The notes: generated from the letters alone by a model not told the origin. A DNA stretch of 64,000 nt from a virus (IMGVR_UViG_3300008262_000001), one strand, 5' to 3'. Counted from the first letter of the stretch, positions 4,684 to 45,778 are shown. Made by a program: numbers and translations.

Positions 4684-6264
4684 TTATTCTAAGGCTTTAG
4701 TGTTCCTAAATTTGAGTTGTTCTAATTCATCCGAATCGAGAAAAGAATCTAAATCTGACCAAATATTTGATCCGTATTTTTTCTCTAATTTTTTCCAATC
4801 GTCATCAGACTTAATAACACTATTGTACCTTTTGATTGTTTCTTCTTCGTCCGAGTTGTATTTGTCCTTTTCCTCTTGTATGAATTTAGCTAATCCAGCA
4901 ATTTGTCCAGAATTATCTACAATTTCTGAATCTTCGTCACCAGTAGTATCAGTTGTAGTTTCTGTTGATTCTGCCCCAGTTACTCCTTCCTCTCCTGTTG
5001 TTGCAGCAAGAGCAACTTGTTCGGGGCTAATTCCGTTCATAGCGTCTTGTAATACCTTTTCATCGATATCATCAAGTTGAATAAGAGCATAAATGAATTT
5101 ACCTGCATTCATTTGTTCCCTCTCAGCTTTAGAGATAAAGTCTTTGTATTCATCATAGTCTGCAAAAACTTGACATCCAGCAGAGTAAGGGCCAACACAT
5201 ACACCAACACCTTTTGTGGAAGATCTATGGATTTGCATTCCACAGTCCTCAACAAAAACCTCTGCAGGTTTGTATGTTTCGTATCTAGTGACTCCTACTG
5301 GATATCTACCGACTTTGATTTTTTCCCCCTCCACCATCATCTTATATTTCTCATCACCTATTGACGAATCTTTTAAATAGTAGATGGTGTCTCCTGGGAT
5401 TTTGATTCCTGTACCCTTCGGATTTAATGGCTTTTTACCGTAAAATGCTAAACTTGGTACTGTTGTTATTTGGTAAGGAACAAATTTATCACCTAAGTTG
5501 ACATTAGTTGCAGTTGATCCTGCACCCAAAAAAGTAGCACCAGTTGTGCCAGTAGCAGCTGCTGTGGCTGCTCCTGTTACACCTTCAGTTTCACTTATGG
5601 AAAGTTTAGGCAGTGATAGATCCTTAGTGTTGTTAAAAGGATCTTTGTCACTCTCGTTCATTTTGGAAAATAGTTCGAAAGAAAGTACTTTTGATTCTTT
5701 CGGTCCTGTAGATGCAGTAGTATTTAGAGCAACTGGTGCACCAGTTGCTCCTGTTGCTCCAGCCGTAATATCACCTCCATCATCTGCATTTCCAGAAATG
5801 AAATACAAAGCATCAGTAAATCTGTCCTGATTAGCAGAATCTTTTTTGACATTTAATCTGTTTCTGATACCAATAATAACAGCTCTTTTTTCATCAAGCT
5901 CCTTTATTGCTCTAGAATACTCTCCAGCATTTTTATCCTCTAAATGTTTTAAAAGGATCTTAAAGGTTTTAACCGAAATTGGGGTTCTTTCCAATTTGAA
6001 CGGCTCACTGGCGCCACATCCTTTATAAGGTCTTGACTCCTTAACCTCCGGTGTTATTTCAATTGATGAATCAACTGAACCTGTTAATCCTTGGACTCCA
6101 CCAAATAGACCTTTTACTAAATCAGCTGCAATTCTTGATTTTGTTTCTCTTTCAGTTTCTGGTCTTCCTGTTCCACTATCATCAGTTGTGGTGGTAGATC
6201 CAGTTACACCAAAGGTGTCTTCATTTAAGAAATATTCATTGAAGGACAGTACAGATTTCTTCAT
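4684..6264 (-). CDS. Putative peptidoglycan-acting enzyme (YkuD/L,D-transpeptidase-like motif) with GAT repeats and a capsid-targeting-like N-terminus
   Basis: IH-X14-SAGCQVF resembles the YkuD H-X14-17-S/T-x-G-C motif. GATGATGA repeats; N-terminus MKKSVLSFNEYFLNE; GATATATA at 6270-6277. Confidence 0.55.
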   Translation of the reverse strand: MKKSVLSFNEYFLNEDTFGVTGSTTTTDDSGTGRPETERETKSRIAADLVKGLFGGVQGLTGSVDSSIEITPEVKESRPYKGCGASEPFKLERTPISVKTFKILLKHLEDKNAGEYSRAIKELDEKRAVIIGIRNRLNVKKDSANQDRFTDALYFISGNADDGGDITAGATGATGAPVALNTTASTGPKESKVLSFELFSKMNESDKDPFNNTKDLSLPKLSISETEGVTGAATAAATGTTGATFLGAGSTATNVNLGDKFVPYQITTVPSLAFYGKKPLNPKGTGIKIPGDTIYYLKDSSIGDEKYKMMVEGEKIKVGRYPVGVTRYETYKPAEVFVEDCGMQIHRSSTKGVGVCVGPYSAGCQVFADYDEYKDFISKAEREQMNAGKFIYALIQLDDIDEKVLQDAMNGISPEQVALAATTGEEGVTGAESTETTTDTTGDEDSEIVDNSGQIAGLAKFIQEEKDKYNSDEEETIKRYNSVIKSDDDWKKLEKKYGSNIWSDLDSFLDSDELEQLKFRNTKALE

Positions 6265-6277
6265 AAATCTATATATC

Positions 6278-6604
6278 CTATTTGCTTTTCTTAATAATCA
6301 GGGATAAAAACGCAGCTAAAAAAGAAACAAGACCTGATCCGATGAATGAATATAATATTGGGTCTAATGATAATTGAAAATTATGCAAGGAGATTCTGGG
6401 ACTAAGTTCCTGTAATCCAGGCAATGCAAAATATAAAATCATAGATGTCCAAAAAGAAAAGCATTGGTAGCAATCCAAAAGATATCCAAAAAACTCGGAT
6501 TTAATTGTGACCCAATCTCTGAAATTTTGAAGGATTTTAGAAGCAACAACTATGTGAGTAAAACCCCAAACACTAAGTAGATAAAAAAAGAAAATGGATG
6601 TCAT
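6278..6604 (-). CDS. Small multi-pass membrane protein (DUF1360-like)
   Basis: Three hydrophobic segments and a CxxC..FW motif ([11 protein letters not shown]). Confidence 0.55.
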
Positions 6605-44993: not shown

Positions 44994-45001
44994 CTTTTTA
45001 A

Positions 45002-45778
45002 TTATTTAAACCTTTCCTTGTAATTTTTTTCGTAATCCTTTAGCACCCAAGGATTGCTTGACAAAAAACTTTTCTCCCTCTCTGTTTTAGTTTTGAAAAC
45101 ATTAGAAATAGCTTTCTCAATTTCATCTTTTAAAGATGAATCGAAAGAACTTCCTCTGTATGGAGCGAAGTAATCTATGAATCCAAGTAGTTTAGCAGGG
45201 TGATCTGATTTTTTGGTTGAAATGCTAGGATCATTTAGATTTCTTGTTACCAAGAAAGATCCATATCCTTCTCTAGCTCCATCCACTGGATTGGTATTCC
45301 CTTCTAGCGAACTAAAATTTTTCTCCTGTGGATTAACTGAAAGAACGATTCCAGTGTGGCCTGAACCGGGATATTCACCCTTTTCATTTCTTGTGAGATA
45401 GAAAAAAGCCATCCCTGGCTTAATTAGGTTTGGATTTTTAAGAGCTTGTTCTGCTGTAATTTTTGCTCCTTTTGATTTTTCCCAGTGAATCCTAACTGAA
45501 GGAGTAACTGGAATTTTATTTTTCTCATAAGAACCTATCCCAGACTTACTAAACACATCATAAACGAAAGCTGCACACCAAGGGTTTCCAGGAGTTGTTC
45601 CAGCAGCTTTTTGCATTGCTTCAACTTCTTTCCCTTTATTGCTACCTCTCGGGGATTCCTCGGCCTTTTGTGAAATTTTCAAAGTGTCAACAAATGACTT
45701 GATTAGACCTTTAATAAATTCAACTGAGTAAGGTACACCTTCATTAAGAAAATCATAGTAATCTTTAATCTTCCTCAT
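45002..45778 (-). CDS. CHAP-domain peptidoglycan hydrolase with a tag-like N-terminus
   Basis: PWCAAFV, GHTGIV, LEGNT; N-terminus MRKIKDYYDFLNEG; GATATATAA at 45782-45790. Confidence 0.88.
   Translation of the reverse strand: MRKIKDYYDFLNEGVPYSVEFIKGLIKSFVDTLKISQKAEESPRGSNKGKEVEAMQKAAGTTPGNPWCAAFVYDVFSKSGIGSYEKNKIPVTPSVRIHWEKSKGAKITAEQALKNPNLIKPGMAFFYLTRNEKGEYPGSGHTGIVLSVNPQEKNFSSLEGNTNPVDGAREGYGSFLVTRNLNDPSISTKKSDHPAKLLGFIDYFAPYRGSSFDSSLKDEIEKAISNVFKTKTEREKSFLSSNPWVLKDYEKNYKERFK

Follow-up and report, generated by a model that had tools for sequence, protein, structure and literature searches.

A shared N-terminal peptide on unrelated proteins

The window analysed here, a 64,000-nucleotide stretch of viral DNA (IMGVR_UViG_3300008262_000001), encodes 12 proteins that begin with a similar short peptide, hereafter the tag (Table 1), which resembles the capsid targeting sequence (CTS) of phage T4 and is likely to be a propeptide of the same kind. 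A first-pass annotation of the window had quoted 12 such N-termini, and all 12 were found at the start coordinates that it gave. Eleven of the tagged genes lie on the minus strand, while the gene at 21398 is on the plus strand and has a GTG start instead of ATG. Using the quoted N-termini, we wrote a regular expression, [FYWL]xx[FY](0-2)[LVIC][NVFAISTQ]E, to be matched within the first 22 residues; this strict form matched 10 of the 59 genes called in the window. The first-pass annotation had proposed beforehand that the motif be compared with shuffled controls, and the predicted enrichment at N-termini was found, since only 0.43 matches would be expected (mean of 500 shuffles of residues 2-22; maximum, 3). 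Internal matches in the window's proteins numbered 4 in 18,907 positions, and among 61 off-frame decoy open reading frames (ORFs) the single match turned out to be the real gene at 21398.

An aromatic pair, [FYW/L]xx[FY], is present in every one of the 12 tags. As the annotation had stated, most tags end in (L/V/I)-x-E, the form [LVI]-x-E being found in 11 of 12 with adenylate kinase (Adk) as the exception. The domains downstream of the tag were also correctly described as unrelated: with 20 residues removed, all-against-all BLASTP comparison gave nothing better than E = 0.1. The codons used for the same tag residues vary from gene to gene (TTT/TTC, GAA/GAG, four Leu codons, and three Val codons). 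With unrelated protein bodies and differing codons for identical residues, what the genes share is a peptide and not a piece of DNA. In AlphaFold2 (AF2) models the tag forms a short helix with a disordered linker after it. The aromatic residues have charged or polar neighbours, and a hydrophobic stretch is lacking, which led us to reject signal peptides and lipoprotein signals as explanations.

The source phage and its relatives

A megablast search of cultured and deposited phages with 20 kb from the window gave no match at the DNA level, indicating that there is no close cultured relative. The ribonucleotide reductase of the window is closest to enzymes of Tenacibaculum and Cellulophaga phages (52-56% identity), and relatives of its AAA protein are encoded in six IMG/VR contigs of 53-248 kb. 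Three relatives, G001 (248 kb), G002 (207 kb), and G004 (148 kb), were compared whole; these contigs are incomplete, and they share synteny with the window, their proteins being 45-90% identical. In both G001 and G004, a gene for a Peptidase_S77 protease, the family of T4 gp21, adjoins a Gp23-family capsid gene, and the capsid protein is closest to those of the uncultured 462-kb megaphage LR756500, the Lak megaphages, and Tenacibaculum phage PTm1. Considering these protease and capsid genes and this kinship of the capsid, the window comes from an uncultured marine jumbo myophage of ~250 kb that presumably has a T4-type head-maturation system and belongs to a clade of Bacteroidota phages together with the Lak megaphages and PTm1. 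Its host is probably a member of the Flavobacteriia.

Conservation of the tag

Orthologues of the tagged genes in G001, G002, and G004 (45-78% identity) keep the tag throughout, while the residues between its key positions drift (e.g., MKRLLGWQEFQLFE to MKRILSFNDFAIFE, and MKNLQVYESFCINE to MYKIKNFKDFCQINE). In several families, identity was 0.63 within the tag, 0.50 in the next 25 residues, which form a poorly conserved linker, and 0.59 in the rest of the protein. Two families, those of the 526-aa and 249-aa proteins, were sampled more deeply with ~230 metagenomic homologues (120 and 113, respectively); each has more than 140 distinct homologue clusters, which shows how common these uncultured phages are in marine metagenomes. 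One JGI contig encodes a protein with 99% identity to the 249-aa protein. Nearly all of the 120 homologues of the 526-aa protein start with M-x-K-K-h-h-S/T-F-x-x-F-h-N-E, after which comes a variable linker rich in Thr and Gly. In the 249-aa family, position P7 is L or I in 112 of 113 sequences, P4 is F or Y in all 113, P3 is V, L, or I, and P1 is Glu in 107, while P2 is free to vary (2.6 bits of entropy, with at least seven different residues).

ATATATA boxes upstream of tagged genes

The sequence ATATATA, usually with G before it, occurs at most 45 nt upstream of 8 of the 10 genes with a strict tag and of 5 of the 49 other genes (Fisher 2e-5). Together with the gene at 21398, this brings the tagged genes preceded by the motif to 9 of 12, the number reported in the first-pass annotation, which had also noted rightly that replication genes (polB, topoisomerase, primase, and gp32) are without it. 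The two strict-tag genes that have no box, at 25875 and 25349, lie downstream of the tagged gene at 27719 on the same strand. Overall, 14 of the 16 gene-sense copies of ATATATA in the window stand just ahead of a start codon. The association of box and tag was also seen in G001, G002, and G004 (Fisher 2e-5 to 1e-10 across the four genomes), and in G001 the box precedes, in addition, the protease-scaffold gene described below, genes of the head module, and orthologues of the window's large untagged virion-type genes. Head and tail genes of the relatives thereby share the box with tagged genes. The T4 late promoter reads TATAAATA, and the ATATATA box, which resembles it, would be a late promoter of this lineage.

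The distance between box and start codon is bimodal in the four genomes: one class is narrow, at 4-7 nt, and includes 32 cases at exactly 4 nt, while the other is spread over 13-22 nt. Genes of the 4-7 nt class would have leaderless or nearly leaderless mRNAs, provided that the box is a late promoter of the -10 type.

The motif in the scaffold and capsid proteins of relatives

When the regular expression was run blind on the relatives, 13 of the 42 internal matches in G001 and 13 of the 30 in G004 fell within one protein, a fusion of a gp21-like protease with a scaffold domain (677-696 aa). The scaffold domain consists of a 14-residue tandem repeat holding Y-S-E-Y-L-A-E, and it contains 10-14 units of the form Y-x-x-Y-[LIV]-A-E. 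A further 35 scaffold loci were collected from IMG/VR; analysis of 24 of these homologues, the most distant at 36% identity, showed 4-14 Y-x-x-Y-[LIV]-[AS]-E units in every one. Given that the relatives' scaffold repeats the motif of the tag, the tag is one unit of the clade's scaffold repeat, with the same candidate cut site at its end. The regular expression also matched the N-terminal region or propeptide of the relatives' major capsid protein (YCHFHSLNE, then S). Tags are frequent among the small genes that surround those for the portal, protease, and capsid in G001 and G004, an arrangement like that of T4, where the core-protein genes 67 and 68 adjoin gene 21.

Farther afield, LR756500 has a Peptidase_S77 protease and a looser version of the scaffold repeat, and the protease-scaffold fusion of PTm1 (L046, 7222-8916) has a different repeat, W-I-K-x-D-F-T-K-E-L-S-E-G-I-E-K, which again ends in L-x-E. 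It may be a general property of this group of jumbo phages that the scaffold repeat includes the cut site. A complex predicted for the first 40 residues of a G004 tagged protein and the G004 scaffold repeat region scored 0.00 with low fold confidence, and thus counts neither way.

Correspondence with the T4 capsid targeting sequence

In the T4 record, ipII and ipIII begin with MKTYQEFIAE and ipI begins with MKTFKEF, with ITE following later. The first ten residues of IPIII are enough for packaging; mutagenesis showed that residues 4 and 7 mainly govern targeting and residues 8 and 10 processing, and that Asp at residue 10 stops cutting and leaves targeting intact (PMC9026906). The T4 protease gp21 cleaves after L/I-x-E, and the internal proteins co-purify with the scaffold protein gp22 (PMC9026906). 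The four conserved positions of the tag (aromatic, x, x, aromatic, hydrophobic, x, Glu) are the very positions that govern targeting and processing in IPIII.

A profile built from the tags was another check that had been proposed in advance. We constructed a hidden Markov model (HMM) of 12 columns from 40 distinct tags of the lineage, and it placed ipIII first and ipII second among 236 T4 N-termini (first 150 kb), at only 7.2 bits. In the megaphage LR756500, the HMM gave 28 matches, with tags that read MKYIK-x-Y-x-D-F-[IL]-N-E, a form absent from the seeds. No match reached 8 bits in PTm1 (300 genes) or MaF61 (188 genes), which are distant relatives in culture, and the tag was present in 0/300 and 1/188 of their N-termini, respectively. 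Since these two phages do not carry the tag, they are unsuitable as direct experimental stand-ins.

Tagged proteins and the predicted cargo

Six of the tagged proteins could be linked with some confidence, or tentatively, to a family or fold, and the domain-profile scans gave no recognisable family for the other six. The protein at 26151-27719 is an AAA_5 (MoxR-type) ATPase (PF07728, 40.5 bits against a cut-off of 22; phrog_1297 at 3.7e-43); alignment with its homologues in N4-like phages begins only at about residue 142, and its tag is 100% identical in the four genomes. The protein at 28867-29559 is a putative metallopeptidase of the DUF2201_N family with an intact HExxH motif (PF13203, 83.8 bits against a cut-off of 23.2). 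In other phages (phrog_1314), DUF2201_N and the VWA-like domain form a single ORF, whereas in the window (27751-29559) they are divided between a tagged N-terminal and an untagged C-terminal ORF; this split is conserved in G001, G002, and G004. The CHAP-domain protein, a putative peptidoglycan hydrolase, matched PF05257 at 28.2 bits (cut-off 26).

The 526-aa protein is composed of the tag, a Thr/Gly-rich linker, a first domain, an internal tag-like site, a YkuD-like domain, and a helical C-terminus. It had no Pfam match, Foldseek against PDB gave nothing significant (E > 0.8), and the ESM Atlas yielded no lead. In its AF2 model (pLDDT 75), the domain at residues ~255-400 best matches L,D-transpeptidases (Z 8-8.8), and in its homologues His346 is invariant and Cys364, 18 residues away, nearly so. 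The internal copy of the tag lies on a helix (196-204) between stretches with pLDDT below 50 and is a candidate second cleavage site; a similar site is present in 61 of 106 homologues. Its place between disordered linkers and its recurrence in homologues suggest that the 526-aa protein is cut into two mature pieces. The 249-aa protein, likewise without a Pfam match, has a GxxRxxA-type motif that reads SGNRRINLA. Searches of PDB with its model using Foldseek placed sulfiredoxin, PadC, ParB, and Noc on top at non-significant values (probability 0.5-0.95, E of at least 0.04), weakly suggesting a ParB/Srx-like fold.

The Adk tag has the aromatic pair (KFGEF) without [LVI]xE, while its orthologues read FKEFVKE in G004 and FKDFVKD in G002. 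Because the pair is kept and the [LVI]xE is lost, the Adk tag is either degenerate or for targeting only. The gene at 21398 has GGAATATATAAT directly upstream, and its start, tag, and box are conserved in G001, G002, and G004.

As a set of protein assignments, the list that the first-pass annotation had proposed as head-loaded cargo therefore holds for the most part: the AAA_5 ATPase, the HExxH-bearing DUF2201_N protein, and the CHAP protein stand, the YkuD-like fold stands tentatively, the ParB/Srx-like fold weakly, and Adk is the member in doubt, its tag lacking the half at which cleavage would occur. Related contigs each have 14-27 matches to the regular expression, i.e., 4-9% of their called genes, and a looser profile gives 25-37 in the three largest; the predicted cargo is thus probably larger than was first claimed.

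In addition, two regions of G001 (139-160 kb and 190-231 kb) contain dozens of small genes, each with its own GATATATA box and with N-termini like MKHIKLFEQF, which have the aromatic pair and no [LVI]-x-E in the next few residues. These genes may represent a class that is targeting-only or cut later, like T4 IPI, in which case the predicted cargo would be well above the count from the strict expression.

Table 1. Positions of tagged genes, their tags, and ATATATA boxes in the window
Feature	Position	Strand	Details
Tagged 526-aa protein	4684-6264	-	Tag residues 1-15 (nt 6220-6264)
Internal tag copy in the 526-aa protein, KVLSFELFSKMNE	5653-5691	-	Residues 192-204, between two disordered linkers
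Tagged 249-aa protein	9773-10522	-	Tag nt 10490-10522; GNRRxxLA motif
Tagged acidic protein, 160 aa, no recognisable family	12896-13378	-	Tag nt 13343-13378
Adenylate kinase (Adk)	14667-15260	-	18-residue N-terminal extension; ADK domain from residue 20
Tagged 102-aa protein, no recognisable family	21398-21706	+	GTG start; tag (M)KNLISFKLFE
Tagged 198-aa protein, no recognisable family	22058-22654	-	Tag nt 22610-22654, ends LFE
Tagged basic protein, 117 aa, no recognisable family	24996-25349	-	Tag nt 25305-25349
Tagged 177-aa protein, no recognisable family	25342-25875	-	Tag nt 25837-25875
Tagged AAA_5 (MoxR-type) ATPase	26151-27719	-	Tag nt 27681-27719; ATPase domain from about residue 130
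Untagged partner: rest of DUF2201_N and VWA-like DUF2201 domain	27751-28860	-	
Tagged DUF2201_N putative metallopeptidase	28867-29559	-	Tag nt 29518-29559; HEIMH at residue 98
Tagged basic protein, 192 aa, no recognisable family	32777-33355	-	Tag nt 33314-33355
Tagged CHAP-domain protein	45002-45778	-	Tag nt 45740-45778; between tail-fibre-like genes
(G)ATATATA late-promoter-like box, example	6270-6276	-	Before a tagged gene
Boxes before other tagged genes (begin, gene sense)	10528, 13396, 22659, 27740, 29573, 33377, 45783		
Box before a tagged gene (begin)	21387	+	
Boxes before untagged genes (begin)	4069, 18351, 19379, 24412, 41252, 58118		

Proposed function of the tag

Taken together, these results make it likely that the tag is a capsid-targeting propeptide of the T4 type. 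According to this model, the tagged genes would be transcribed late in infection from the ATATATA boxes, and the N-terminal helix, with its aromatic residues three positions apart, would dock each protein onto the core of the assembling prohead. The core would be built from the protease-scaffold fusion with its 10-14 tandem Y-x-x-Y-[LIV]-A-E units, so that the tag would amount to a single scaffold repeat joined to a cargo protein. The gp21-family protease would then cut after the Glu of [LVI]-x-Glu, freeing the mature protein inside the head, and the same protease would destroy the scaffold at the same motif. We infer late timing, docking, cleavage, and the presence of the tagged proteins in virions from the sequences. 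A tentative generalization, conceivable although we would not call it probable, is that the scaffold of the whole clade is a tandem array of 10-14 CTS-like units, onto which cargo is loaded by mimicry in one copy and from which it is freed by the cuts that dismantle the scaffold. Ejection of the cargo into the next host would be a further and weaker step, which we regard as a serious possibility short of an expectation; alternatively, part of the cargo, for instance the AAA_5 ATPase and the HExxH protein, may have its function in the head during maturation.

The T4-like reading put forward in the first-pass annotation gains from the match of positions, the HMM ranking, the gp21-family protease and gp23-type capsid of the relatives, and the scaffold repeat, and against it stands an Adk tag without its cleavage half. 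Several other points also weigh against it. Support for the whole lineage is based on sequences and models, and the protease and scaffold evidence comes from the relatives (45-90% protein identity), since the head module and protease of this phage lie outside the window. The mature parts of the tagged proteins have pI values of 4.2-9.6 and are not uniformly basic, in contrast to the T4 internal proteins, and the T4 rule is not followed at P3 by some homologues, where Thr or Lys is found (FKQFTNE). Among the tagged proteins is Adk, a nucleotide enzyme of the cytoplasm, and the metallopeptidase half is tagged while its VWA partner is not. Matches in 4-9% of the genes of related contigs would imply a heavy and varied load. 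Furthermore, that the ATATATA box is a late promoter is something that we infer, and a search for T4 gp55 in three relatives found nothing. Finally, T4 gp21 can cut a cytoplasmic host protein (preprint PMC12991175), so a cleavage motif by itself is no proof of packaging.

This last point leaves some room for an alternative, on the whole unlikely, in which the propeptide is cut late in infection as a timing switch or activation step and the proteins are not packaged, remaining in the cytoplasm or periplasm. In its favour, [LVI]-x-Glu, which makes up half of the tag, is a protease motif, and the two tagged cell-wall enzymes (CHAP and YkuD-like) might need late activation. However, the aromatic pair is as strongly conserved as the cleavage residues, and its counterpart in T4 is the targeting determinant. 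In addition, the Adk orthologues keep the aromatic pair where Glu is lost or is Asp, a change that in T4 abolishes cutting and spares targeting, and the identity of the tag with the scaffold repeat points to the head core.

Slightly less probable still is that the helix is an address of another sort, recruiting proteins to a phage chaperone, to a step of tail or baseplate assembly, or to a membrane site. The CHAP gene lies among tail-fibre-like genes and the window encodes a DnaJ homologue (6601-7632), as might be expected if this were the case, but such an address would leave unexplained the match to the T4 CTS determinants, the same motif in the scaffold repeat and capsid propeptide, and the clustering of tagged genes by the relatives' head genes; moreover, the tags lack the hydrophobic core of a signal peptide or membrane anchor. 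We give very little credence to the notion that the peptide is functionless and merely accompanies a mobile DNA cassette of promoter and start region, comparable to T4-type regulatory cassettes, or an A/T-rich initiation feature of the early codons. Most tagged genes do have their own ATATATA box 4-25 nt upstream, but untagged genes carry the same box, and residue class is constrained at four positions with free positions between them in more than 200 homologues; the differing codons and the copies of the motif between domains and within the scaffold exclude such an explanation. Shared N-terminal leaders on unrelated proteins are a hallmark of systems in which the leader serves a modifying enzyme, such as those for ribosomally synthesized and post-translationally modified peptides (RiPPs) with radical-SAM enzymes, but a leader of this type is just as improbable here, since the tag differs from these and resembles the T4 CTS, and Radical_SAM (PF04055) had no match in four related contigs of 130-248 kb while matching in 14 of 14 control genomes.

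Comparison with known packaging systems

The preferred interpretation, a T4-type CTS, has its closest parallel in the tag of T4 IPI, IPII, and IPIII, which is likewise an N-terminal peptide of 10-19 residues on unrelated proteins and is removed by gp21 (Mullaney and Black, 1996; PMC9026906). Both have aromatic residues three apart followed by hydrophobic-x-Glu, and both lineages have a gp21-family protease. The two differ in several respects, however. The present lineage infects another host phylum, belongs to another phage clade, and has a capsid protein that is only distantly Gp23-like. T4 has three internal proteins, which are small and basic, compared to 14-27 matches per related contig here and a predicted cargo that includes large enzymes. 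Position P2 of the tag is mostly Asn in this lineage, and the relatives' scaffold, unlike T4 gp22, consists of the motif repeated in tandem. The T4 CTS is also known from experiment, whereas this lineage is known from sequence alone.

The polymorphic internal-protein loci of T-even phages, which encode diverse anti-restriction proteins sharing only the CTS (PMC3012670), similarly combine a conserved address with fast-changing, swappable cargo. Here, in contrast, tagged genes are scattered in replication and tail regions as well as clustered, and many are conserved orthologues across the clade instead of being hypervariable. The ejection or inner-body proteins of phiKZ-like phages (phiKZ, 201phi2-1, and SPN3US) resemble the predicted cargo in that many head-loaded proteins, including enzymes, are trimmed after Glu (PMC5694885, PMC10052503, PMC9026906). 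Their propeptides, however, are long and without a short shared consensus tag, the gp21-like protease cuts after S/A-x-Glu, and the cargo was identified by mass spectrometry, not being readable from sequence.

Precedents also exist for the kinds of protein involved. The internal core protein gp16 of T7, which has a lytic transglycosylase domain, is an example of a cell-wall enzyme packaged in the head. The Dar system of phage P1 provides one for head-packaged anti-defence proteins delivered with the DNA (PMC9024508). Neither system uses a shared short N-terminal tag, and their loading logic is different.

The T4 CTS itself, and its use by T4-like phages to load varied proteins, have been published (PMC3012670, PMC9026906). 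In the open-access literature we found no account of such scaffold repeats or of CTS-like tags outside the T-even phages. What we did not find there includes the extension of the CTS to this clade of Bacteroidota jumbo phages, the number and enzymatic nature of the tagged proteins, and a scaffold made of the same motif. If the tags work as they do in T4, the proteins carried in the head of an uncultured marine phage lineage could be listed from its genes, and the list would hold enzymes and not just small DNA-binding proteins, widening the view of what T4-type head delivery or maturation is used for. The same-motif scaffold offers a concrete docking model for the binding partner of the CTS, a step that is unclear even in T4, and the pair of tag and scaffold could serve as a portable protein-packaging tool in a second phage system. 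Should the scaffold-mimicry proposal be true, the packaged proteome could become readable across a whole clade of Bacteroidota jumbo phages and megaphages that are abundant in marine and gut habitats, at 4-9% of called genes per related contig. It would include an AAA+ ATPase/metallopeptidase pair, two cell-wall enzymes, a ParB/Srx-like protein, and possibly a nucleotide kinase, and the number of scaffold repeats might set the cargo capacity.

Other features of the window

Nearly all genes of the window are on the minus strand, and its G+C content is ~35%. Among its products are a class Ia ribonucleotide reductase, a topoisomerase II subunit, a primase, a helicase, a gp32-like protein, UvdE, DnaJ, and Adk. 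There is also a block of very large proteins with weak matches to tail-fibre or tail-tube proteins. The large virion-type proteins at 38890-41247, 51445-54978, 54984-57167, and 57181-58098 had no Pfam matches, and tblastn led only to unannotated relatives; since these searches were uninformative, the labels "tail" and "structural" rest on the weak PHROG matches and on synteny.

An ORF with a GTG start at 17721-18335 encodes 204 aa with a weakly BclA_C-like C-terminus and lies behind a CGATATATAAAT box. No orthologue of it was found in G001, G002, or G004 by ATG-only gene calling, which truncated this ORF.

Two ORFs within 1870-4602, one at 3186-4055 (zinc-finger/DUF7487) and the other at 4036-4602, are missing from G001 and G002, where the adjoining topoisomerase subunit starts 41 residues later than in the window; the first of the two ORFs is present in G004. 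The segment has the appearance of a mobile element inserted into the topoisomerase gene.

The family B DNA polymerase of the window (19928-21334, 468 aa) is an N-terminal half, having the exonuclease domain and only the first part of the polymerase domain; presumably, the polymerase is split and its other half is encoded elsewhere. Lying among the tagged genes are those for DnaJ, which is full-length with its J domain, zinc-finger domain, and C-terminal domain, and for the UV endonuclease UvdE (8845-9759).

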